From contig CAADXH010000018.1 of the NCBI GenBank assembly GCA_900752975.1, forward strand, positions 46,904 through 110,903: a stretch of 64,000 bases of DNA. Direction: 5' to 3'. This document shows, piece after piece, positions 471 through 29,200 of this stretch (position 1 is the stretch's first letter; every line of letters begins with the position of its first letter). The translations under genes were made by a program, and so were the position numbers. The notes below the pieces were generated by a model. It searched no databases and had not been told where the DNA came from. It saw nothing but the letters and a program-made list of their open reading frames with translations. The DNA comes from Bacilli bacterium (GTDB taxonomy: Bacteria > Bacillota_I > Bacilli_A > ML615J-28 > CAG-313).

Positions 471-496
471 ATTTTGTCTAAGTTCCGAATTTCACA

Positions 497-569
497 TATA
501 TATTATAATAGTGATAGATAGGATACAGAAAACTGTTATAAAGAAATCGTCCTATCATCGGAGGTAGTT
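497..569 (+). promoter_or_regulatory. conserved ~70-bp promoter and 5' leader cassette (ATATATTATAATAGTGATAGATAGGATACAGAAA...CGGAGG), copy 1
   Basis: It is nearly identical to the reverse complement of 21202..21273. It contains a TATAAT element and an RBS, and lies immediately upstream of the ATG at 570. Confidence 0.6.
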
Positions 570-2283: not shown

Positions 2284-3654
2284 ATGTCGATATTTTGTAA
2301 TGAACATAGTATAGAATCTTATCAAGACAGACAACTTCAGCAAGCAATTAATGAAGCTTATTTCGGACGTAATGCTGGCATTACAAAAGTATATAATGCT
2401 TATTGTGATTGGAGAGAACCACTCATTTCTAAGAGTAAGTATTTCACTGCTACTATTAAGAATGTATATAATGAAGATATGAAATACTTTAGAAAATGTG
2501 TATGTGAACAATTTGGATTTGAAACTTTCTCTTATACTGTTGTCCAATCTGCAACAATAAATTCATTTACAATTACTGAATTCATTCCAACAAGAAATAA
2601 AAATAAATTAGAAATCACTAAAAATGGATATAAGTTTAAAGATGGTTCTAATGTTAATGCTATTGTCGCAGTGTATTCAGATTTAGTATTTAATCCTTAT
2701 TATACGAATGAAGAAAACTTTGCAATATTTCTTCACGAAATAGGACATAATTTTCAAACAGCAGTAAACAAGACAGTATTTTCTTTAACTGCTGCTACTG
2801 GATTGTTTTATGTATTAATTGATTTAATGAGATACGGTCCTATAGAACCAATTGCAAATCTTTTAGTTTCCTCAGATAATACTAAGAAAGTAATAAATAA
2901 TGTATTGAATGACTTATTAGATAATAAAGCAATGCAATGTATTTATACAGTAACCAGTATGTTACTATATGTGGGCACATCTATTAAAAATATTGTACTT
3001 GATATTATACAAATTACAGGTAGACCGGTTGCATTAATTATTGGTGCTTTATATAATTTACTTCCATTTTTATTGGAATTAATAACAGGTAGTCATCTTA
3101 AAAGTTATTATGGTGAAAGATTTGCCGATGGTTTTGCAGCTTCTTATGGATTTGGAGAAGCATTAGCATCTGGTCTAAAAAAGTTTGATGGAATGAATTA
3201 TGCAAGATCTCAAATTATGTCTGATGATATTATGCGTACTCCAATTATTGGTCATCTTTATGTATTAGCTTGTATGCCTGGATTAATGCTTTGGTCTATT
3301 ATTGACTGTCATCCATCTACTGAAGATAGATGCAAGAGTATTATAAAAGACTTAAGATATGACTTGAATGACCCATCTACACCACCTGCACTTAAGAAAC
3401 AACTAGAAAAAGAAATTGACGATTATGAAGCTGCTATGTCAGAATATTTTAAAGAAACAAAGAAGTTTTATAAACCTTCAGCTATTCCGGCTGTAATGCA
3501 GGAATTGATTTACAATAAATTAGGCGGTAGTGCTAAACTTAAGATGTCTGAATTACCATATATGATGAAAGGTGGTTTCAGATCATCCAACTATAATAAC
3601 AATCAAGAATTGAAAGAAGGGTACAACTTTATTTCAAATACTGAAATTGTTTAA
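2284..3654 (+). CDS. putative membrane-associated zinc metallopeptidase (HEIGH motif)
   Basis: RBS GGGAGG. It has the HExxH motif FLHEIGHNF followed by several long hydrophobic segments. Confidence 0.45.
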   Translation: MSIFCNEHSIESYQDRQLQQAINEAYFGRNAGITKVYNAYCDWREPLISKSKYFTATIKNVYNEDMKYFRKCVCEQFGFETFSYTVVQSATINSFTITEFIPTRNKNKLEITKNGYKFKDGSNVNAIVAVYSDLVFNPYYTNEENFAIFLHEIGHNFQTAVNKTVFSLTAATGLFYVLIDLMRYGPIEPIANLLVSSDNTKKVINNVLNDLLDNKAMQCIYTVTSMLLYVGTSIKNIVLDIIQITGRPVALIIGALYNLLPFLLELITGSHLKSYYGERFADGFAASYGFGEALASGLKKFDGMNYARSQIMSDDIMRTPIIGHLYVLACMPGLMLWSIIDCHPSTEDRCKSIIKDLRYDLNDPSTPPALKKQLEKEIDDYEAAMSEYFKETKKFYKPSAIPAVMQELIYNKLGGSAKLKMSELPYMMKGGFRSSNYNNNQELKEGYNFISNTEIV

Positions 3655-6198: not shown

Positions 6199-6261
6199 GC
6201 TTCATACGATTAAATACTATAACATGTAATTACCTTAGGGAGGAGAACCCCTGGTTGGGAT

Positions 6262-6337
6262 AACTGGATTTGAACCAGTGGAATGACGGAGTCAAAGTCC
6301 GTTGCCTTACCGCTTGGCTATATCCCATCATTTATTT
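6262..6337 (-). tRNA. tRNA-Gln (anticodon UUG), 76 nt with encoded CCA
   Basis: Folded by hand: 7-bp acceptor stem, TTCAAAT T-loop on a 5-bp stem, and anticodon stem ACGGA/TCCGT with loop CTTTGAC. The D-stem is only 3 bp. Confidence 0.7.
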
Positions 6338-9340: not shown

Positions 9341-9360
9341 ATCAATATTATAATATATAG
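9341..9360 (-). promoter_or_regulatory. promoter-like element TATAATATTGA upstream of the topoisomerase A gene
   Basis: Member of the recurrent TATAATA(G/T)TGAA motif family, about 45 nt upstream of the start. Confidence 0.4.
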
Positions 9361-13450: not shown

Positions 13451-13557
13451 AACATTTTCCTCCTTTTAAAATAATTTTATTTGATTGAGATTCCTCTCTA
13501 ATCACCTTAATATTATATAACCATTTACTTTTTTGTTCTAGACCTTGTAAATGATTA

Positions 13558-16959: not shown

Positions 16960-16988
16960 CTCTTAACACTTTTATAATATATAAATCG
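16960..16988 (-). promoter_or_regulatory. promoter-like element TATAAAAGTGTTAAGAG, overlapping the hairpin ttaagag/ctcttaa
   Basis: Motif-family member about 35 nt upstream of the gene start at 16917. Confidence 0.4.
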
Positions 16989-20095: not shown

Positions 20096-20644
20096 TCACT
20101 TAAAGACTTTTTGAATATATACATGTCTATACATGGATTCAAGAACACGCTTGGTAGTTTTAACCATAACAAAACGTTTGGTAGTTTTATCCATAACAGA
20201 ATAACTCTCAAAATCAACCAATGCTCTTGCGTCAACATATCCTTCTTTCAGCAATCTAGTGATCTGAGTATAGAAAATGTCATGTTGACTTTTTTCTAAG
20301 ACAAAGAATATAGGAACATCGCTTGTTGTCAATTCATTATACTCCAGTAGTTTTTCGATTATTTTAACGCATTTTTGAATATTACAAACATCAAAATTAC
20401 GAACAATAATGCAAGTTTTAACCGTTCCTTTACAAGCCCAAACAATATCTCCATGGGTTATAGAAAGACTACGAATGAATTCTTTGCTATTTATTGTAGT
20501 ATCAATAAGATCAAGCTCAAACATGAATTTTCTATCTTTCTTATCTTGTTCGGACAAGAAGAATTTGCAATTCAAAATTCCTTCATTAACAAACTTTACT
20601 TCAATGAGAGTTCCATTAAAAATACTGTTAAATACATCTTTCAT
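20096..20644 (-). CDS. hypothetical protein, paralog B of the tandem pair (start moved to MKDVF)
   Basis: Its RBS context aatcGGAGGtatattATG is identical to paralog A. The ORF-track N-terminus MGIFLAE... is translated leader. Confidence 0.6.
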   Translation of the reverse strand: MKDVFNSIFNGTLIEVKFVNEGILNCKFFLSEQDKKDRKFMFELDLIDTTINSKEFIRSLSITHGDIVWACKGTVKTCIIVRNFDVCNIQKCVKIIEKLLEYNELTTSDVPIFFVLEKSQHDIFYTQITRLLKEGYVDARALVDFESYSVMDKTTKRFVMVKTTKRVLESMYRHVYIQKVFK

Positions 20645-20673
20645 AATATACCTCCGATTACTTTGAGTTCTTT

Positions 20674-21201
20674 TCAGTTTCTTGCTTCTGCCAAAAAGAT
20701 TCCCGTACTCTGCCAAAAAGATTCCCATACTTCGTATTTAGTTTTTAACATGGATTTATATATCTCATTTTTAGCCTTAAGCAGAACTTTATTATTTTCT
20801 AGCTGAACCAAGGTGTTCGCTTCAAGATACCCATTCATGAGTAACAAAATATCCCATTCAAATGACAAGTTAAGCAACCCAGTGTCGAATATGAAGAATA
20901 TTGGGACATCATCCATATTCTCATCTTTCACATATTGTTCAAGACTTTTAACACTCCCTACAATATCATTATTATCCCAGTCAAAAACAACTATGCAATT
21001 GTCAACAATACCCTTACAAACTTCATATACTTCTCCACGAATTATAGCGAGCTTCTGGATAAATTCTTCATCATCTTTTGTGATGTCGATAACCTCAAAT
21101 TTGACAAATCTGTATCCTTCATCAAATTCTTCTGGTGTTGGTTCGATAACGTAATCAAGAATTCCATCACATAAAGCTTTCTCTGTTTTTACATTTTTCA
21201 T
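20674..21201 (-). CDS. hypothetical protein, paralog A of the tandem pair
   Basis: Clear similarity to B (CKG(I/T)V..C(I/V)V, DVPIFF(I/V)). RBS GGAGG. Confidence 0.6.
   Translation of the reverse strand: MKNVKTEKALCDGILDYVIEPTPEEFDEGYRFVKFEVIDITKDDEEFIQKLAIIRGEVYEVCKGIVDNCIVVFDWDNNDIVGSVKSLEQYVKDENMDDVPIFFIFDTGLLNLSFEWDILLLMNGYLEANTLVQLENNKVLLKAKNEIYKSMLKTKYEVWESFWQSTGIFLAEARN
20688..20726 (-). repeat. tandem direct repeat: 2 x 17 nt (CTGCCAAAAAGATTCCC) with 22-nt periodicity
   Basis: Read directly. It lies in the last ~17 codons of paralog A, which also form the 5' leader of paralog B. The two copies are read in different frames (WESFWQ and GIFLAE). Confidence 0.7.
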
Positions 21202-21273
21202 AATATACCTCCGATTATAGGACGAGTTCTTTATAACAGATTTCTGTATCCTATTATCACTATTATAATATAT
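21202..21273 (-). promoter_or_regulatory. conserved ~70-bp promoter and 5' leader cassette, copy 2 (reverse complement of 497..569)
   Basis: About 90% identical to copy 1 over ~70 nt, including the TATAATAGTGATA box and the RBS. Confidence 0.6.
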
Positions 21274-21278
21274 AAATA

Positions 21279-22400
21279 TTATAAAGTTTCTGATAATATT
21301 TTTATCAGTTCGTCTGATGTTATAAACTCTTCTCCTTTATTCTGGTTTACATACTTAGCAAAGATTTCATATTCAGATAAGTTATTGTCGAAGATATAAT
21401 CATACTGAGCAAACTTATCATTTGTCTTCTGATTCTCTTTCATCGATTCAATGAAACCAGAATCCTGTACGTCAATAATTATATTCTGTCCTTTTGTACT
21501 GAAGTATTGTTTAACTGCATCTGTTGAAGTTGTAGCATTTCGAAATCTTATCTTCAAATAATCAATACCAGAATTCTTTAGTTGAATGATATAGTTTATG
21601 ATTTCCTTTACATCACAATCTACCATATTATCTAAGTTTATTGTATCGTATCGAAAAGATTTGATTGGTTGAAACTGTACAGAATATTGATGAGTCGGTA
21701 CATCGTATAAACAGATAAGAAAACCTTTTTCTTGTTCTTCTCCAAATCTCCATCTTAATGGACTACCAGAATAATAAATATGGTTTTGGTAACATCCTTG
21801 TACATGAACATGTCCACATAAGATAGGACCATTACAACGAGCAAAACTGTTAATATCGAATACTGGGCTTTTAACTGTATCTAAATCTTCTCTATCTAAT
21901 CCATAGATTGCACCTTTGATATTACCATGAAGAACAGCCATATCATAGTCCTGAGTATAATATAGCAATTGTTCATAATACTCTCTACCTTTGTTATATT
22001 CTTCTGGAATGCATAAAACCTTTGTTCCTTTGATGTCTTGAAACTGCATATTCTCTACAATTCTTATATCTACTCCAGAGTTTATATATCGATAGAATAG
22101 TTTCAATTGGTCTGCATCATGTGAAAAAGTACCATGTAATAATACAAGTGTAGCATTATTTTGAATACAAAGCTTTACAATTTCATCTACAAATAGTAAG
22201 GCATACATAATAACATCTGAGTTTGACATAAACTTATGATGGAACAAATCTCCATTAATAAAGAATGCATCGAAATGAATCTTTCTAACTTCATTTATCA
22301 TTTGTTCCATTAATATATCATATTGTAGTTTTGGATCCATTGCTCCAAAATGAATATCTGCTGTATGAATCTCAACTAACGTCCTATTATAGTATTGCAT
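21279..22400 (-). CDS. SbcD/Mre11-like metallophosphoesterase nuclease
   Basis: Calcineurin-fold motifs HTADIHFG, NGDLFHH, LLHGTFSHD, AVLHGN and CGHVHV. Confidence 0.75.
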   Translation of the reverse strand: MQYYNRTLVEIHTADIHFGAMDPKLQYDILMEQMINEVRKIHFDAFFINGDLFHHKFMSNSDVIMYALLFVDEIVKLCIQNNATLVLLHGTFSHDADQLKLFYRYINSGVDIRIVENMQFQDIKGTKVLCIPEEYNKGREYYEQLLYYTQDYDMAVLHGNIKGAIYGLDREDLDTVKSPVFDINSFARCNGPILCGHVHVQGCYQNHIYYSGSPLRWRFGEEQEKGFLICLYDVPTHQYSVQFQPIKSFRYDTINLDNMVDCDVKEIINYIIQLKNSGIDYLKIRFRNATTSTDAVKQYFSTKGQNIIIDVQDSGFIESMKENQKTNDKFAQYDYIFDNNLSEYEIFAKYVNQNKGEEFITSDELIKILSETL

Positions 22401-22475
22401 TCAATTCACCCTCCGATTTATAATAATTTTATAGGAAAGTTTTTTAGTAAATTAAAAAAAACATAGTTATATATC

Positions 22476-22492
22476 ATTATAGTGAATAGCAG
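22476..22492 (+). promoter_or_regulatory. promoter-like element ATTATAGTGAATAGCAG
   Basis: Motif-family member about 65 nt upstream of the start at 22555. Confidence 0.4.
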
Positions 22493-22554
22493 AAATGTTA
22501 TTTCCGACCCGTACGGAATTACGGAGAATTTTAAAATACAGGAGGTATTCTATC

Positions 22555-23790
22555 ATGAATACAACAGCAAACAGAAACACAGCAACCACACGGGAAATCA
22601 CTACTATCTTCGACAAAGCTATTAGCTTTGATAAGGTAGAGCCTTGCATTCTCTACTTAGCCGAAAGTGTAAACGGCAAGCAGGGAATTTTCTTGAAGCT
22701 GGAACATTCCAATGGAAACATTTTCGGAGCAATCAGAAAAGTTAATCCCAAAAGAAAAGTGAAGGCTGGAAGCAACAAGATTATCTTTAAGTATTATGGG
22801 CAAACTTATAGCTTGTTCTTAAATGAAGTAATGCTTATTGATGGCCGCACATCAAGACTGTTTAAAATGTACAATTTTCGTCTTCATTTCGAAGATGCTG
22901 ACAGGATTTATGACGGTTTGTGCAAGCATTTCAAAGCGTTAAATGCAGCCAATCAAGTAAAAGAACAGGAAGAGAAACCACAGACGAATCAGACTGTAGC
23001 ACCAATTGATAAGGAATTGTTTGACAATTTGATGGGTATGGCTATTAGTCAGACAGGTTTGACAGAAGCTGAAGTTACTGAGTATGTTGACTATGTTACT
23101 CGGTATATTCAGAATAAGAGAGAAGAGATGAACGATCTTAAAGAACAGATTCAGGAAATTTCCGAAGATATCTCTTCCAAATCTTCAGAGTTTGTTTTGG
23201 AAATTCAGAAGCGGAAAGAAATAGCTGAAAAGAGAAGAGCAGAAGAAGCTCGTAAAGCTGCTGAGGAAAAAGCAAAGAAGAAGCAGGAAGAAATTAACTC
23301 TGTAAGAGAATTTCTCTCTGGAGCTTCAGATGATATGATTCAGTATCTGAAAGCACAGCTTGGTGTTGAAGAAACTAAAAAATCTGATGAAGAATCTGAT
23401 TCACTGAAAGGTGATATCAATATGAAGGTTAGAGTTGTTCCTTCTAATAATGATGACTCTTGGAATTTCTTTGCAAAACACGTTAGAGAAATTTGTGATC
23501 GTTCATCGTTACCAAATAAAGAAATTCTTGAAAGACTCGTGAAGAAATCTGACGGCATGACCCTTAAAGAAATTGCCGATGCGATGGGGTTTAACTCCAG
23601 CGGAAGAATCGTAAGAATAAATGATCTTCTCAGAAAAATGAAATTTGACAAGATCTTAGGAACCAGAGTTCGTAAATCTGGTTATAAGATAGCCACTAAT
23701 AAAGAAAGTCGTGCCAATGGTGGCGTAACAAGAAAAATTAATTGTGAAATTTATAATGAATTGGCATCTGAATCTGAATATATCAAATAA
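22555..23790 (+). CDS. coiled-coil protein with a C-terminal winged-helix DNA-binding domain (start moved to MNTTAN)
   Basis: GGAGG lies 9 nt upstream of the ATG at 22555. There is a charged helical stretch EKRRAEEARKAAEEKAKKK, and a C-terminal region LKEIADAMGF...VRKSGYKIA that looks like a wHTH. Confidence 0.55.
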   Translation: MNTTANRNTATTREITTIFDKAISFDKVEPCILYLAESVNGKQGIFLKLEHSNGNIFGAIRKVNPKRKVKAGSNKIIFKYYGQTYSLFLNEVMLIDGRTSRLFKMYNFRLHFEDADRIYDGLCKHFKALNAANQVKEQEEKPQTNQTVAPIDKELFDNLMGMAISQTGLTEAEVTEYVDYVTRYIQNKREEMNDLKEQIQEISEDISSKSSEFVLEIQKRKEIAEKRRAEEARKAAEEKAKKKQEEINSVREFLSGASDDMIQYLKAQLGVEETKKSDEESDSLKGDINMKVRVVPSNNDDSWNFFAKHVREICDRSSLPNKEILERLVKKSDGMTLKEIADAMGFNSSGRIVRINDLLRKMKFDKILGTRVRKSGYKIATNKESRANGGVTRKINCEIYNELASESEYIK

Positions 23791-23826
23791 ATTTCTAATG
23801 TCCTGTGATGCAGTTGTGATGTAACG

Positions 23827-23863
23827 AATAACAGAGTGGATTTTCCCACTCTGTTATTTTTTT
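23827..23863 (+). terminator. rho-independent terminator
   Basis: aacagagtgg/ccactctgtt stem followed by TTTTTTT. Confidence 0.7.
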
Positions 23864-23907
23864 ATATTTAACCTCAGATTAACTTTTTTATAAAGGAGGT
23901 GTATTAT

Positions 23908-24723
23908 ATGGATAACTACTTACTATTTGAGTCAGGTATAGATTATAACAGAGTGTTTGCTCATCGAGGTGATATATTTATCTGCGAAGGATTATTCAAA
24001 CCTATGTCTGATATCGAGGAAAATGACCATATAATAGCAAAACCGAATAGACCGGTTTTAATTATTTCTGATGACATACATAATGCTGATATTGTGAAAG
24101 TGTTACCGTTCTCTACAAAAGCTGGTTCACTTGATCAAGAGTCTATTACTTCTGGGAGAGTAATTAAAGTCCCTGGCATTAAAAGTGACACAAACTCTAA
24201 TTACATCGATGTATCTCAGATATTTACGATTAATGTATATCAATTGAAATATAAGTTAGGACATGCTTCTCAAGAAATTGTAGATGCAGCAGTAGCATTA
24301 CATACACTACAAAACGTTGCTAATGCTACATCTATTAATACGATTGTCAAAATTTTTAAAGAGAAATTTCCGAATGCTCCTATTTTTAATCAGTTAAATA
24401 CAATCACTACAAATAGCTATGCAAATGGTCAAACAATATTTGTGAATAATATGTATGATCCTTCAGTCGATTTGTTCTCAGAGGTTAAACAAGTTACATA
24501 TGAAGAACTAATGGCTGAGAATGCAGCTAAGCCAGTATTAATGAATCCTGAAACAAAAGAACAAGCATACGAAATTTACCAAAAATGGCTATCTATGGGA
24601 ACAGATCTATTTAGAGCAAAATATGGTTTAACAAAACAACAATATATTACTTTGCGAGATAGGTGTGTTTGTAAGATGCTTGGAAAAATTGCAAACTTTA
24701 AGAAACATGATTGGAGTGCATAA
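23908..24723 (+). CDS. MazF/PemK-like endoribonuclease domain (N-terminal ~125 aa) fused to a ~150-aa C-terminal domain of unknown function
   Basis: HRGDIFICEGLFKPMSDIEENDHIIAKPNRPVLIISDDIHNADIVKVLPFSTKAG aligns with PemK/MazF/EndoA (RGD(I/V)(Y/W)..L.P..G.EQ...RPVL(V/I)(I/V)S.D......VV(V/L)P.TS). AGGAGG lies 8 nt upstream of the ATG at 23908. Confidence 0.65.
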   Translation: MDNYLLFESGIDYNRVFAHRGDIFICEGLFKPMSDIEENDHIIAKPNRPVLIISDDIHNADIVKVLPFSTKAGSLDQESITSGRVIKVPGIKSDTNSNYIDVSQIFTINVYQLKYKLGHASQEIVDAAVALHTLQNVANATSINTIVKIFKEKFPNAPIFNQLNTITTNSYANGQTIFVNNMYDPSVDLFSEVKQVTYEELMAENAAKPVLMNPETKEQAYEIYQKWLSMGTDLFRAKYGLTKQQYITLRDRCVCKMLGKIANFKKHDWSA

Positions 24724-24726
24724 TTA

Positions 24727-24766
24727 AGATGGGTTGGATTTAGTTCCAACCCATTTTGTTTTTTCT
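24727..24766 (+). terminator. rho-independent terminator
   Basis: aagatgggttgg/ccaacccatttt stem followed by TTTTTT. Confidence 0.7.
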
Positions 24767-24780
24767 GAATATTTGAATTA

Positions 24781-24817
24781 TATAATATAATAGTGAATAG
24801 TAGTTGAATACTATTTT
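24781..24817 (+). promoter_or_regulatory. promoter-like element TATAATATAATAGTGAATAGTAGTTGAATACTATTTT
   Basis: It contains a TATAAT box, the TAGTGAATAG motif and the palindrome ATAGTA-N6-TACTAT, about 45 nt upstream of 24861. Confidence 0.45.
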
Positions 24818-24860
24818 GTACTGTCGAGGATTACAGAATCATCATTAAGGAGGAGTCATT

Positions 24861-25226
24861 ATGATTATTAATGACAAGAGCACAGTCGTGCTCATCAACA
24901 ACATTGATCTCGATGATGTTAAAATCTCGAGAATCAAACTCGAAAATATGTTTGGAAAGGAGGAATTAAAGGGTAAGTATATTACCATTTGGAACAACAA
25001 CTGCCATACCGGAACTTATCCAACTATGTATAATATCAAGGAAGGATTCAGTGTTGATTTCATTTTTGCCAATGTATTTATGACTAGATACACTGGCGAA
25101 ATTATCGTAAATGGTGTCGAACTCTATGTCAACGTTATTTGTGATGAATTCGAAAAGAGACCTGAAACTGATTTCGTAACTTTCGAACAGGCAATCAAGG
25201 GTTGCCTTAAGGAAACTGAATATTAA
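24861..25226 (+). CDS. hypothetical protein (121 aa)
   Basis: RBS AAGGAGG. Confidence 0.55.
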   Translation: MIINDKSTVVLINNIDLDDVKISRIKLENMFGKEELKGKYITIWNNNCHTGTYPTMYNIKEGFSVDFIFANVFMTRYTGEIIVNGVELYVNVICDEFEKRPETDFVTFEQAIKGCLKETEY

Positions 25227-25337
25227 TAGTTTTCCTTTAAAACCGATAAAAGAATACTGTCCGTCGTTAGATGGGCAGTTTCTTTTTTGTCGTATAGCTC
25301 GAACTTTATTATAAATGACTATAAAGGAGGAATCGTT

Positions 25338-26273
25338 ATGGCTAAAAATTATAACAATACTTTTATCTATACGAAATTTCCGTATGAAGAGAATATTTTT
25401 AGATTCTTAGTAAATGCAAATCGTATTGATAAAGATACTGATAAGTTTGAGGATATTAAGTATGAGTTTAAGAAGAGACAGATTGACAGTTGTCTTCTTA
25501 AGGTTTTGATGTCTAAGAACGTAATTCTGTGTGTATCTGATACTACACCGTTGAATACACAGTTCAGGGTTATTTGTGCAAGAGACCCTAAGTTTAAATC
25601 TAATACAGATTATAAGATTTTCATTGATTGTACCGGACTTATTATAATGGATAAGGACGGTAGTTATAAATGTAGAAGTATTGATATTCTTGTTTCTCAT
25701 ATTGTGAATGCTATGACTACAATGATTTACCATAAAGCTGAGAATCAAATCCTTTCTACACAATTGGTCAGTGATACAATGGAAGCTTTCTGTAATCTAT
25801 TTACGCATATAATTGACTATCTTGCAAAGATTTCTGTAATTCCTTCTTCTAAATCCAAGTGTCAATTCTTATCTTGTATGTACTTTACAGAGAACATCAT
25901 TCAGAAGGAATTTAATAATAACTATCAGCATATTGCCGGTAGAATTACAAATCTTTCTGAAAGAGAACAGGAAATGATTATGGCTCAGTGTGATGAAAAG
26001 GATTTTGAATCGATTAAATCTTTTGTAGAAAAACTTGCTGACTTAATTAAAGTTCCTGCATTGAAAGTAGATAATGTGATTGATAAATGGATGTACTTAT
26101 ACGGTTCTAATACTGTATTTGCAATTGAATATTATCCGGCATTGTCTGCTATGTTGACAGATGCATACTGTGGTGCATATATCAACAACCAAAAAACAAT
26201 TGAAAAGGTGGTAGGTAATACTTTAGTAAGTTATACAAAGAATGTTATTGCTAAAGGTGGGACGTTAGTATGA
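25338..26273 (+). CDS. hypothetical protein (start moved to MAKNYNN)
   Basis: AAAGGAGG lies 7 nt upstream of the ATG at 25338. Confidence 0.55.
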   Translation: MAKNYNNTFIYTKFPYEENIFRFLVNANRIDKDTDKFEDIKYEFKKRQIDSCLLKVLMSKNVILCVSDTTPLNTQFRVICARDPKFKSNTDYKIFIDCTGLIIMDKDGSYKCRSIDILVSHIVNAMTTMIYHKAENQILSTQLVSDTMEAFCNLFTHIIDYLAKISVIPSSKSKCQFLSCMYFTENIIQKEFNNNYQHIAGRITNLSEREQEMIMAQCDEKDFESIKSFVEKLADLIKVPALKVDNVIDKWMYLYGSNTVFAIEYYPALSAMLTDAYCGAYINNQKTIEKVVGNTLVSYTKNVIAKGGTLV

Positions 26274-29200
26274 GTAAATATATGGAAGATATACGAGGAA
26301 AAGTTGTATCGAATCCAATTAATGAAACAAATACTAAATATGGATATATTGAGAAAGTCGATGGTGTTCGAAATTCTGATTACTATGCTATTGACACTCA
26401 ATATATGTATAATAACAATGAACCTGTAAGTGATTTCGATACTGCTTATTACGATGATTATAGAAATAAAGTAGAAGAGCTTCGTAAGAAAACGGAAAGT
26501 ACTTATGAAGCATTAGAATCTTGCTTAGTTCCAGTTGAGATTCCAGGTATGTCATTTCAACCATTTGAATATGACACTGAAGAATCTGATGAAGGAGAAA
26601 TCATCCAAAAGAAAGTAAAGTCATTTACTTATTTTTTTCAAGACCATTTGTCACCAATCGGATATAAATCTCCTTTAACTGGTGGTGCAGTTAGAGAATT
26701 TGTTTTCAGAACAAATAAGGTTAAATTTATTGATGATCGTCATAGAAGATTAATCTATGATAGAACAATTCATCTTATGAGTCTTAAAGAAGATGAAGAT
26801 AATGATGTTTCTTTTAAGCAAGTTATTCTGAGAACTTTCTTTGATTATTATAATGGAAAATATTATTCTAAGGTAAGAGATTTAGATTCTAATACATATA
26901 CTTATGAACAAATTGCTAGAGCGATTGTAGAAGATATTAAATCTTCTGGAGAAAGTTGTACTGTAATCGATAAAGCTGGTAATGAAAAGAAAGTAGAAAC
27001 AATTGATGATTTTGATTGCAAACTTCTCAGTGGTCAAGATATCGATACTTTGATTCCTAGTAGTTTGTATAATTTATATAATCTTGGTTGGGTTAATGCC
27101 GCATTGATTTTTCTAAACGGATTGTCTATTAGTTGGAATAAAGTATTAATCTCTGTAGATAGTATTGATACATTTATCATTGTATCAAATCTATCTAAAA
27201 CAGGTGCATCTTTTTTAGATGATGACAAAGAAATATATTTAGACTATATTCATATTCCGTTTAAAGTAGCATATTTGATCGGCTCTCTAGACGCTAATAC
27301 GATTGAGTATGATAAGTATATTACTAATGGAAAGATAAATAAACAGATTATTTTTACAATTGATAAACCAACTCTTACAACGAAATTTACACATCTTATG
27401 GATTTGTATTCCAATTCTACTGGATATAACTTTGATAAGATTATTTGTCTTGATGATAATATTCGATTTATGGAATTTACTTTATATGATGGTGATGAAT
27501 CGAATTTAAAAGATGCTGGTATTAATTATACAAAGTCTTTTAGACAGTTCTGTGATAATGATTATAGATGCAAGCTAAAGCAATTTAATTTTTTAGGATT
27601 TGAACTGAATCGATATGACCCAAATGACCAGACAGGTAGAGGTACATTAAAGAATGATGACTTTACAATAACTTGGCATCCATTTAATATTATGGACATT
27701 CGATTTAAGAGATTATTCAATAATCCTAGAATCTTTAAAGTATTCTATAATACAAAAGTATTGTACGATCAAGACAACATCCTACGTATTAAGAATCATG
27801 ATAAGTTAGCAGATGAATATGAAAAGTATCGAAAGGATGTTACTGCAAATATAGAGACTTACCTAAATGAAATCTATATTTTAGCAAAGAAAGATATTGG
27901 TACATATATTGCTACAAATGGAACAATGTACGGATATAAGTATAACTATGTAACACCATATGAATGCTTTATACTTTACAATACGTTAAGAGAATTGAAA
28001 TCTGATACAAAGATATCATTCGATGAATTTAGAAAGATTAATGTATCTGGTATTAAATCTGATTCTAATAAATATAAGACTCAGATAAATCCCAAATTGA
28101 TTGCAAATAAAGATGGTGATTGTGTATGGGTTATTTCAGTAGATGATGAGCAGAAACAATGTCCAGCTGTAAAGATTGTTGAAATTGCTACTGGTGAACA
28201 AGTGTTAGCTGATGTCAACTACGATGAAGCTAAGAATAATATTATTATTACAATGAATAAAGATAGCCAGAATATTCAAGAGAGCCTTTATAAAGTAACA
28301 TTGTATTATGCTGATATTATTAAAGGTTGCCCAGCAATTACTGAAGAAGATGGTACTTGTATTTGGAGAGAAGTTGTAAAAGGAAATGTAACAGCAACTG
28401 CTGTATATGACACAGTAACCAATCAAGTCGTTTTGACAGATATATATTCTGATACGAAAGATGGATTTACATCTATTGTAATTACATTTCATAATACAGG
28501 TAATATTGATAGCGATAGATATAGATTGGTTATTAATATTAATGAATCTGATCAACACAGTGTGTTGAATTATATGAATGGTGGCTTTATCGCTGTTCCT
28601 GTTAATGAAGATAGTATGTTTATGGAGAAGCTTGATGAAAAAGATTTCTATCAAAAGGATGGAACTGTAAATCCAAAATACAAAGACTATCTATTAAATA
28701 TTCTGAATTCAACCAATGCTACAATTCCTGATATTCTTATTCCAATTGATAATGAAATCAGAGATGACCAGACACAACCAAATGATGCTTTCATTAATTA
28801 TGAAGGTGATACAAAGGGAAAGTTATTACCATATACACCAATTATGAAAGAATTTGGTTTAGAACAAGAATATACTGATTTGACATATGACAGTTTAAAA
28901 CTACGATTTGAATTAGCTTATCTTAATAACGTTGAAGAAGGTGCTACGCCAATTGATGAATTTATCTATTACCTTGATAATGATTACTTGATAAATCTTA
29001 ACAAATATCCAGTAGTATTGAATTATCGTTATCGAAAGACAGCTAATATTTTAAACGCAATTGCTAAGAATATATTCAAATACGATCCTAACATGGTTCT
29101 GGATTCTATTATAAAGATGAACTATTCTGCTGACTTTATTATTCCAAAAGAAATAGATAAAACAAGAGAAGATATCATCACAACTTCTAATGAAGAACCA

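Follow-up and report, generated by a model that had tools for sequence, protein, structure and literature searches.

A MazF-fold domain fused to a family-specific C-terminal domain in gut jumbo phages, a candidate antitoxin-less endoribonuclease of the phage

An uncultured jumbo phage from the gut, with a genome of ~215 kb, encodes a 271-aa protein that combines a MazF/PemK-fold domain with a C-terminal domain found only in this protein family, and no gene beside it is conserved as a partner. The best explanation, to which a probability of roughly 45% is assigned, is that this protein is a MazF-type endoribonuclease that is expressed late, has no antitoxin, and carries a lineage-specific domain for targeting or regulation, serving as the phage's own tool in a way that is functionally like RegB of phage T4. 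A role as an RNA-cleaving tool of the phage is preferred over a classic toxin-antitoxin (TA) pair because there is no antidote gene alongside. The window, which is the whole stretch of 64,000 nucleotides that was analyzed, belongs to this phage. A previous interpretation, made from the letters of the DNA without database searches (the sequence-only reading), had taken the gene to be phage-borne and the phage to possess its own RNA polymerase (RNAP). Both hold, since the phage encodes the subunits of a multisubunit RNAP, with split genes of the phiKZ/AR9 type.

The mechanically determined open reading frame of the MazF-like gene starts at GTG 23899. The start at ATG 23908 is favored because of the sequence GGAGG directly upstream and because of the N-termini of homologues. 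The features of the locus are as follows.

22555..23790, + strand: neighboring gene for a 411-aa coiled-coil protein, a lineage-restricted accessory gene, with an early-type motif, TATATCATTATAGTGAATAG, at 22470-22489
23826..23859, + strand: terminator-like hairpin of the upstream 411-aa gene, 14 bp stem and T-run, ~40-48 nt before the ATG
23881..23893, + strand: promoter-like motif B, AACTTTTTTATAA, 27 nt upstream of the ATG, fitting the AACW-N6-TA form of the late promoter consensus of phage AR9
23895..23899, + strand: Shine-Dalgarno sequence GGAGG inside the conserved ATAAAGGAGGTG, read from the sequence and kept in orthologous loci
23908..24723 (stop codon included), + strand: coding sequence of the MazF-like fusion protein, 271 aa, from the homologue search
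23959..24318, + strand: MazF/PemK-fold domain, residues 18-137, with R20-G21-D22, R48-P49, P67-F68-S69-T70, Q104/T107/N109, and a C-terminal helix (122-135), from Pfam, Foldseek, and the family alignment
24319..24453, + strand: extra helix (residues 140-153, up to the invariant P155), then a disordered linker of variable sequence and length (about residues 159-182), from the AlphaFold2 (AF2) model and column identity
24454..24720, + strand: family-specific C-terminal domain (C-domain), residues 183-271
24725..24758, + strand: terminator-like hairpin behind the MazF-like gene, 14 bp stem followed by a T-run
24861..25226, + strand: neighboring gene with a product of 121 aa, found in 6 of the 13 related loci, with an early-type motif at 24779-24800 and its own terminator at 25256-25279

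The N-terminal half of the protein is a genuine MazF/PemK-fold domain in which catalytic-type residues are retained. The Pfam profile PF02452 (PemK_toxin) matches residues 20-127 over profile positions 2-100 of 109, with an E-value of 1.2e-7 and 32.3 bits against a curated cut-off of 23.1. This is the sole Pfam match of the protein, and the same annotation (precomputed) is present in all full-length homologues. PHROG 1936 ('MazF-like growth inhibitor') is matched with an E-value of 4e-10. Sequence searches of the PDB returned only marginal matches to MazF (E 0.1-0.4), so that the fold was settled only by a structure search. In the AF2 model, the MazF domain has a pLDDT of 70-86, and the top 50 Foldseek matches of the model in the PDB are all MazF, Kid, or MoxT structures with a probability of 1.00 and an identity of 12-24%. 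TM-scores normalized to the target are 0.59-0.75 in the top 50 and 0.64-0.74 in the top ten. The model and its matches show the SH3-like barrel with C-terminal helix of MazF and Kid; the domain is acidic, with a pI of 5.5, which counts against the preferred explanation. The sequence-only reading had aligned this half with the MazF/PemK fold and had named an assignment to an unrelated SH3-like or β-barrel family as the outcome that would speak against it. Profile and fold searches alike lead back to MazF/PemK.

Across 60 homologues with identities down to 43%, no substitution was seen at R20-G21-D22, R48-P49, S69, Q104, T107, or N109, and S69 is followed by S or T, resulting in a P-x-S-[S/T] motif. 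The motifs RGD, NRPVLIIS, LPFSTK, QIFTI, and EIVDAAVA, which had been picked out by eye, are all present and fall into invariant or near-invariant columns of this alignment. R48 takes the place of the catalytic Arg in alignments to SaMazF, BsMazF, and MazF-mt3, and R48-P49 aligns with the R-P of SaMazF, BsMazF, Kid, EcMazF, and MazF-mt3. In EcMazF and BsMazF, the catalytic Arg that opens strand 2 is R29 and R25, respectively, and the catalytic Thr/Ser that closes strand 3 is T52 and T48. In the phage protein, S69 ends the predicted strand 62-69, with the HMM and hhalign registers to the catalytic Thr of SaMazF and BsMazF shifted by 2-3 residues. The P-F-S-T sequence is mirrored by P-L-S-H in gp171 of phage A9, and its counterpart in E. 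coli MazF is P-C-T-T.

The C-terminal extension is as much a part of the family as the MazF domain. About 85-90 homologues with 41-97% identity were found, and the full-length ones all have both domains; 82 of 85 comprise 256-274 aa with a query coverage of 98-100%, the other three being shorter fragments. Conservation is high and even along the full length of the protein, with a mean column identity of 64% in the 60-sequence alignment and strong purifying selection on both domains. In the linker, column identity is 0.24-0.27 over residues 161-180, the length varies from 15 to 27 residues, and the segment 163-179 is modeled with a pLDDT below 50. The C-domain consists of an acidic part (185-215, pI 4.9), made up of an extended segment and a helix, and a subsequent basic three-helix bundle (216-271, pI 9.2), with the invariant residues P185, D233, F235, Y239, Y246, C253, F264, and W269. 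No relatives of this domain were detected outside the MazF-like fusion family in searches that included 1.84 billion representative proteins, and it is always accompanied by the MazF domain and never found alone. The extra C-terminal region recognized in the sequence-only reading is therefore real, as a conserved stretch of ~130-150 residues without detectable relatives outside the family. The C-domain may target or regulate the nuclease by binding nucleic acid or a partner.

The family is confined to a clade of gut jumbo phages with genomes of ~190-230 kb. Contig names of the relatives suggest metagenomes of the pig or human gut as their source. In the wider group of jumbo phages, a MazF-like gene was found nearby in none of 70 loci with a gp28-like protein of 31-62% identity, showing that it is not essential for the jumbo-phage lifestyle. 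In two distant relatives (L032 and L033), the possibility that the genes preceding the gp28-like gene are diverged homologues of MazF was examined and dismissed. Among GenBank phages, neither megablast with positions 22000-26500 nor tblastn with the full-length protein, even at E<=10, gave a match, and the N-terminal domain alone gave only matches with E~5 to MazF-like genes of Lactobacillus phages. NCBIfam and PADLOC scans of the protein were empty, and literature searches on MazF/PemK in jumbo phages or phiKZ-like phages, and on TA systems with a fused MazF, brought up nothing relevant.

Judging by the predicted hairpins, the MazF-like gene is monocistronic, with a terminator on each side. 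The terminator that had been noticed between this gene and the upstream gene was recovered as the hairpin at 23826-23859, which would insulate the MazF-like gene from the 411-aa gene. In total, the region has 9 terminator-like sites versus 1.5 expected. Motif B at the MazF-like gene has the AR9-late-like form AACTTT-N2-TATAA. The AR9 late consensus has been described as A(-11)ACA-N6-U-A/G(+1) (PMC7598289); AACT-N6-TA at 23881-23892 has T at position -8 versus A in this consensus. The sequence AACWTWNNTATAA occurs in 10 copies in the window versus 1.36 expected (7-fold), a number reached by none of 100 shuffles, and all 10 copies are intergenic, upstream of open reading frames, and correctly oriented. 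Motif B precedes, among others, the genes for a gp28-like vertex protein and a 1356-aa protein, and it is also located upstream of an SbcD-like nuclease gene and of an RNAP subunit gene, which counts against the late assignment. In six independent lineages, AACW-N6-TA is found 25-39 nt upstream of the orthologous gene, with a background of 0.001 per nt. The early-type motif carried by both flanking genes is distinct from motif B. Because the motif B class precedes virion genes and resembles the late promoter of the non-virion RNAP of AR9, expression of the MazF-like gene in the middle or late phase is suggested. The gene is probably transcribed by a phage RNAP.

The organization of the locus bears directly on whether the protein is the toxin of a classical two-gene system of type II or type III, with the 411-aa winged-helix protein, the 121-aa protein, or an RNA as antitoxin. 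The three genes adjoin in the window and in the closest relatives, and an HTH-like stretch, as read from the sequence, ends the 411-aa protein. However, these neighbors are missing or swapped for unrelated genes in other lineages in which the MazF-like gene is intact. In the 13 related loci, the upstream slot is occupied by the 411-aa family, an unrelated gene for 139-150 aa, a MazF paralogue, or nothing, and the downstream slot by the 121-aa family, three other unrelated genes, or nothing. The 411-aa gene is absent from the loci L001, L017, L004, L020, L021, L002, and L007, and its homology to the 139-150-aa family of the same slot was rejected by profile-profile comparison. Terminators separate all three genes, their promoter classes differ, and antitoxin profiles match neither flanking gene. 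Thus, a cognate antitoxin of the MazE/PemI/Kis type that is adjacent and co-transcribed was not found across the 13 loci, and neither flanking gene is a conserved partner; the suggestion that 22555..23790 and 24861..25226 encode partners or neutralizers is not upheld. The description of the upstream product as a coiled-coil protein with a C-terminal winged helix stands in part: the gene is real and its product has weak coiled-coil-type profile matches, but the winged helix gave sub-threshold matches only in all profile searches. Type III systems are marked by an array of tandem repeats of ~30-40 nt that, together with a terminator, immediately precedes the toxin gene. No tandem repeats were found by TRF between 23790 and 23908 or nearby, and the locus has no Rfam match, so that a ToxN-like toxin with a repeated RNA antitoxin was rejected. 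Altogether, a two-gene system is regarded as extremely improbable. A CcdB-like gyrase poison, considered because the phage carrying the MazF-like gene also encodes its own topoisomerase II, was likewise rejected, as the top 50 fold matches contain no CcdB and PemK_toxin is the sole Pfam match.

The antitoxin might instead reside in the same polypeptide. Precedents exist in CapRel(SJ46) and EzeT, in which toxin and antitoxin are fused, and in such a single-chain arrangement the acidic segment 185-215, the C-terminal bundle, or both would cover the RNA groove of the MazF domain like the tail of MazE until a trigger arrives; superinfection, a defence factor of the host, or a late-stage signal could play this part. 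The lack of a conserved separate antitoxin gene, the flexible linker between the two domains, the position of the acidic segment ahead of the basic bundle, and the exclusive occurrence of the C-domain with MazF all agree with self-neutralization. It is nevertheless judged unlikely, since the segment 183-197 reaches a pLDDT of 82-83 when modeled without the MazF domain and hence appears to be part of the C-domain fold, and since the full-length model, with a pTM of 0.48 and a pLDDT of 56-67 over residues 181-200, predicts no confident docking. Furthermore, MazE has its DNA-binding part at the N-terminus and its neutralizing tail at the C-terminus, an order that is reversed here. A dimeric nucleic-acid-binding regulator, in which the MazF fold would serve only as a scaffold for dimerization or ligand binding while the HTH-like C-terminal bundles regulate late gene expression through DNA or RNA binding, is also considered improbable. 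A decoy that disarms or pre-empts an abortive-infection system by titrating a MazE-type antitoxin of the host or some other host factor, or by mimicking a host toxin, would fit a phage-borne gene that is limited to a single clade within the larger phage group and that lies between accessory-gene slots varying among lineages. This is very unlikely, however, given that no PADLOC model is matched, that a pure binding decoy does not need invariant catalytic residues, and that conservation is even and high over the whole length.

Among the functions proposed in the sequence-only reading, namely a host-shutoff or anti-defence nuclease, a fused self-neutralized TA, and an RNA-processing enzyme for phage transcripts, the evidence favors an RNase that serves the phage. 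In the antitoxin-less endoribonuclease preferred here, the N-terminal domain (18-137) would provide the MazF fold with catalytic-type Arg and Ser/Thr residues and a putative RNA-contact strand, Q-x-x-T-x-[ND], and a flexible, variable linker would tether this nuclease to the 89-residue helical domain with its acidic lead-in and basic helical core. Synthesis from a self-contained transcription unit in the middle or late phase could then lead to the sequence-specific cleavage of transcripts of the host, of early phage genes, or of both, resulting in a shut-off or a temporal switch as with T4 RegB. As a sub-variant, the RNase might be packaged and delivered at the next infection. As a point against the preferred explanation, a synonymous-codon shuffle test gave no avoidance of sense-strand k-mers that would mark a cleavage site; on the mRNA strand, depletion concerned homopolymers and GATC only. 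A more elaborate version is rather unlikely: a self-contained RNase switch in which the MazF nuclease is gated or targeted in cis by the new domain, is made late and possibly packaged by a jumbo phage with its own RNA polymerases, and selectively destroys host or early-class transcripts, so that the logic of a TA pair would be compressed into a single chain and turned to temporal control by the virus.

MazF nucleases have been understood almost entirely as halves of bacterial TA pairs. Here, the MazF fold is under purifying selection in gut jumbo phages, has no conserved adjacent antitoxin gene, and is joined to a novel domain. If active, the protein would be a second independent case, after T4 RegB, of a toxin-fold RNase domesticated by a phage for mRNA control, and it would provide a sequence-specific RNase and a small domain, both new, for characterization. 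The practical value is moderate. The family has few members and none in culture, and long 'PemK-like' phage proteins already exist as annotations, although they have not been studied.

The closest structural relatives are the MazF/EndoA-type toxins (PF02452), such as S. aureus MazF (4MZM/4MZP) and B. subtilis MazF (4MDX/1NE8), which have the fold in common with the phage protein (Foldseek probability 1.0, TM 0.64-0.74, 19-24% identity) as well as the R-G-D of the first strand, the R-P motif with the catalytic Arg, a Q-x-x-T-x-[DN] strand, a C-terminal helix, and, probably, the Ser/Thr closing strand 3. In contrast to these toxins of about 110-120 aa, the phage protein has 271 aa, with a longer β1-β2 loop bearing the invariant residues D40, H41, and K45, and with the extra helix, the linker, and the 89-residue C-terminal domain. 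A MazE-type gene is lacking beside it, its carrier is a jumbo phage of the lytic type, and its transcription probably depends on a phage RNAP. T4 RegB is a phage RNase with the RelE/YoeB toxin fold that inactivates a temporal class of mRNAs without an antitoxin (PMC3014915). It is proposed as a functional analogue and not as a homologue, having the RelE/YoeB rather than the MazF fold; unlike the MazF-like protein, RegB is the single-domain product of an early gene and is activated by ribosomal protein S1.

MazF-fold proteins are already known from phages, comprising PHROG 1936, gp061 of Lactobacillus phage Maenad, which differs in being a stand-alone protein of 120 aa, and PemK-like proteins of 170-266 aa from uncultured phages in BFVD. 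The long BFVD proteins A0A8S5SHR3 (233 aa), A0A8S5UF15 (235 aa), A0A8S5UCH8 (247 aa), and Q332J9 (220 aa) align over 181-271 columns; a profile search with the C-domain recovered none of the long BFVD PemK-like proteins, and their extensions are not detectably homologous to it. In gp171 of Brochothrix phage A9 ('putative toxin-antitoxin system'), also from a lytic phage, a MazF-like domain with R-R-P and P-L-S motifs is accompanied by an extra region. This protein of 206 aa from a member of the Herelleviridae differs in that its extension is N-terminal, has about 75 helical residues, and is unrelated. The single-chain TA proteins CapRel SJ46 and EzeT resemble the phage protein in having a toxin domain covalently joined to a second domain and no separate antitoxin gene. 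They differ in being host defence proteins with toxSAS and zeta kinase folds, for which neutralization in cis has been demonstrated.

The 271-aa product of the ORF at 23908-24723 (+) belongs to the MazF/PemK fold family, which is established by profile, fold, and a catalytic arginine. Residues 20-127 match Pfam PemK_toxin with 32.3 bits (cut-off 23.1), the protein also matches PHROG 1936 ('MazF-like growth inhibitor'), and an AlphaFold2 model built from a 60-sequence alignment (mean pLDDT 73) has a beta-barrel plus a helix at 122-135. The model's best 50 PDB matches are MazF, Kid, or MoxT in 50/50 cases (probability 1.0; TM 0.59-0.75 on the target; 12-24% identity). The MazF/PemK fold proposed for the N-terminal half in the sequence-only reading is thus borne out, and the searches did not place this half in an unrelated SH3-like family. 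Among 5.8 billion proteins, 85 homologues were found, 82 of which have 256-274 aa, 98-100% query coverage, and 41-97% identity, while three are shorter fragments. In the 60-sequence alignment, invariant columns of the MazF-like half include F7, R20-G21-D22, F30-K31, D40-H41, K45, R48-P49, S54, N59, L66, S69, P89, I100-D101, Q104, F106-T107, N109, Q112-L113, K116, I124-V125-D126, and V129.

R48-P49 aligns with the catalytic Arg-Pro of Staphylococcus aureus and Bacillus subtilis MazF, Kid, Escherichia coli MazF, and Mycobacterium tuberculosis MazF-mt3. Invariant S69 closes predicted strand 62-69, and position 70 is S or T; the resulting P-x-S-[ST] motif is similar to P-C-T-T in E. coli MazF and to P-L-S in gp171 of phage A9. 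Because automatic alignments against Gram-positive MazFs are displaced by 2-3 residues in this region, S69 is regarded as a probable rather than a proven catalytic-type residue. The strand S-Q-[IV]-F-T-[IV]-N is the counterpart of E-Q-I-R-T-I-D in B. subtilis MazF, which contacts RNA in the B. subtilis MazF-RNA structure. A k-mer avoidance analysis yielded no cleavage motif.

The MazF-like half is followed by an extra helix (140-153), a linker of about 15-27 residues that is variable (column identity near 0.25) and modelled with low confidence, and a conserved unit at residues 183-271 with invariant P185, D233, F235, Y239, Y246, C253, F264, and W269. This unit has an acidic stretch at 185-215 (pI 4.9) and a basic one at 216-271 (pI 9.2). 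A profile of this domain gave 10 matches among 1.84 billion representative proteins, nine of which belong to its own family (six full-length MazF fusions and three truncated fragments) and the tenth of which is an unrelated repeat protein. The C-terminal domain is therefore exclusive to the MazF fusion, and its suspected novelty was upheld.

With about 30% G+C, the window is AT-rich; it encodes the following:
GyrA/GyrB-like topoisomerase II subunits
DnaB-like helicase
Dda-like helicase
endolysin
PhiKZ gp28-like vertex protein
two beta-type RNA polymerase subunits, split as in phiKZ/AR9 (PHROGs 2962 and 2987)
6252-6327 (-), tRNA-Gln(UUG), a single gene among replication genes

IMG/VR viral genomes of about 212-225 kb contain the same sequence or one nearly identical to it, and no close relative was found among the GenBank phages searched. 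From these genomes and the encoded genes it follows that the window belongs to a jumbo phage that is uncultured and has multisubunit RNAPs of its own. Compared with synonymous-codon shuffles, GATC is scarce on coding strands throughout the window (73 vs 181 expected, z = -11), as is GGATC (5 vs 33), which points to avoidance of a restriction or modification system specific for GATC.

A survey of 80 IMG/VR loci anchored on the gp28-like protein showed that the fusion gene is conserved yet confined to one clade, and not core to all such jumbo phages. It lies within 5 kb in 9/9 loci with enough flank and a gp28-like protein at least 77% identical, and in 0/70 loci at 31-62% identity, where the neighbours, differing by lineage, are unrelated (HTH protein, RNase H, DHH phosphoesterase). 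It is nonetheless present in a few more distant lineages (loci L002, L006, and L007; 42-50% identity). The arrangement of a gp28-like gene with a giant ORF of 750-1530 aa behind it is kept across many IMG/VR jumbo phages of 200-285 kb, even at identities as low as 31%, and the genes upstream of the gp28-like gene vary with the lineage.

In 13 related loci, the usual order is SbcD-like gene (minus strand), variable slot, MazF fusion, second variable slot, gp28-like gene, and 1300-1528-aa ORF. In the upstream slot, the 411-aa family is present in the window's lineage and in three further loci of the sample (versions of 208-517 aa); elsewhere the slot holds a 139-150-aa coiled-coil gene or a tandem MazF paralogue (L002), or is empty (L001, L017). 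The coiled-coil gene was ruled out as a relative of the 411-aa family, no homology being found by hhalign. In the downstream slot, 6/13 loci have the 121-aa family (26% identity between lineages), and the others have one of three unrelated gene types or nothing (L006). Since both slots are variable or empty, no adjacent gene is a conserved partner, and the proposal of the flanking genes as candidate neutralisers is not supported. Tandem repeats or known RNAs able to act as RNA antitoxin were sought and none was found. The downstream family (121-135 aa; window 24861-25226, L001 7031-7384, L017 from 4966, L018 from 4889) has no database annotation, is preceded by motif A (see below), and has a common C-x2-C ... 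G-x-Y-P motif, of which the window copy retains just 'NNNCHTGTYP'. The L002 paralogue (2401-3156, 251 aa), directly 5' of the orthologue in this distant relative and behind a motif A copy, keeps G-D, N-R-P, and P-I-T-T, but its linker, which is K/E-rich, and its C-terminal region differ from those of the target. It is a singleton among the 5.8 billion proteins of the database.

Between 22555 and 25226, a hairpin-plus-T-run terminator lies behind each gene (23826-23859, 24725-24758, and 25256-25279; 9 terminator-like sites in the region vs 1.5 expected), the first confirming the terminator noticed between the 411-aa gene and the target. Two classes of promoter-like motif occur upstream of ORFs. 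Motif A, TATATATTATAATAGTGA, is conserved, AT-rich, and located about 60-80 nt 5' of the topoisomerase II gene and a number of small genes, both target neighbours among them; related contigs also contain it (L002 near 2326, L004 near 5452). Motif B, AACTTT-N2-TATAA (in degenerate form AACWTW-N2-TATAA), has 10 copies in the window vs 1.36 expected, 10/10 correctly oriented and 20-45 nt 5' of an ORF start; the ORFs behind it include the target (23881-23893), the gp28-like gene, a 1356-aa ORF, and the SbcD-like nuclease gene.

Copies of both motifs in the window
497-514, 22470-22489, 24779-24800 (+), motif A
9342-9359, 13502-13519, 16966-16983, 21257-21274 (-), motif A
1041, 5359, 23881, 25302 (+), motif B
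5321, 14069, 22441, 37552, 54517, 56474 (-), motif B

In jumbo phages, the early promoters, used by the virion RNAP, are conserved and AT-rich, and the AR9 late promoter is A(-11)ACA-N6-U-A/G(+1) (PMC7598289). By analogy, motif A is probably the early promoter class of this phage. Motif B fits AACW-N6-TA, a pattern near the AR9 late form. AACW-N6-TA lies 25-39 nt 5' of the target orthologue in six separate lineages whose intergenic DNA has otherwise diverged (background 0.001 per nt). Motif B may represent a class of late or non-virion-RNAP promoters. We infer that the MazF-like gene would be transcribed as a middle or late gene, by the non-virion RNAP, and both neighbours as early genes.

For the gp28-like gene (25287-26273), the likeliest start is ATG 25335, giving 311 aa in agreement with all homologues, rather than the mechanical TTG 25287, whose extension contains a motif B copy (25302-25314) and an SD. 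Two unrelated genes, 570-989 and 20674-21201, have in common a near-identical ~70-nt promoter plus 5' leader:
490-569 (+), shared promoter and leader
21202-21290 (-), shared promoter and leader

The shared sequence reads ...ATAGTGATA[G/A]ATAGGATACAGAAA[A/T]CTGTTATAAAGAA[A/C]TCGTCCTAT[C/A]ATCGGAGG; because its ends can pair (ATAGGA...TCCTAT), it may be a regulatory leader. Gene 20674-21201 (-) forms a paralogous pair with 20096-20728 (-) at 33% identity, from a small family of varying copy number (1-3) adjoining the SbcD-like gene in related loci.

The most economical reading of the target is a MazF-type endoribonuclease in the service of the phage. It would be expressed from a late-type promoter of the phage itself, its MazF domain would cleave RNA to the advantage of a lytic phage, so that an antitoxin would not be needed, and the C-terminal domain would supply targeting or regulation of the nuclease. 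A self-neutralised single-chain toxin-antitoxin (TA) is a rival that would suit the absent antitoxin gene and the acidic segment of the C-terminal half, but this segment is modelled confidently within the C-domain without MazF, and the full-length model (pTM 0.48) gives no docking signal. Another rival is a dimeric HTH-type regulator with MazF as its scaffold; in a pure scaffold, the catalytic-type and RNA-contact-strand residues need not have stayed invariant. An anti-defence decoy is a further rival to the endoribonuclease, and a classical two-gene TA is made unlikely by the synteny.

Tested as a 'type II TA toxin' system, the target lacked both an adjacent antitoxin and stand-alone size, and its membership as a system is not established. 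A functional precedent for a phage RNase is T4 RegB, which has a RelE/YoeB fold and inactivates early mRNAs (PMC3014915). Extended phage MazF proteins are not without precedent, given the 'PemK-like' phage proteins in BFVD (170-266 aa) and the N-terminal extension of Brochothrix phage A9 gp171, all uncharacterised. In a C-domain profile search, the target's C-terminal domain was absent from these proteins.
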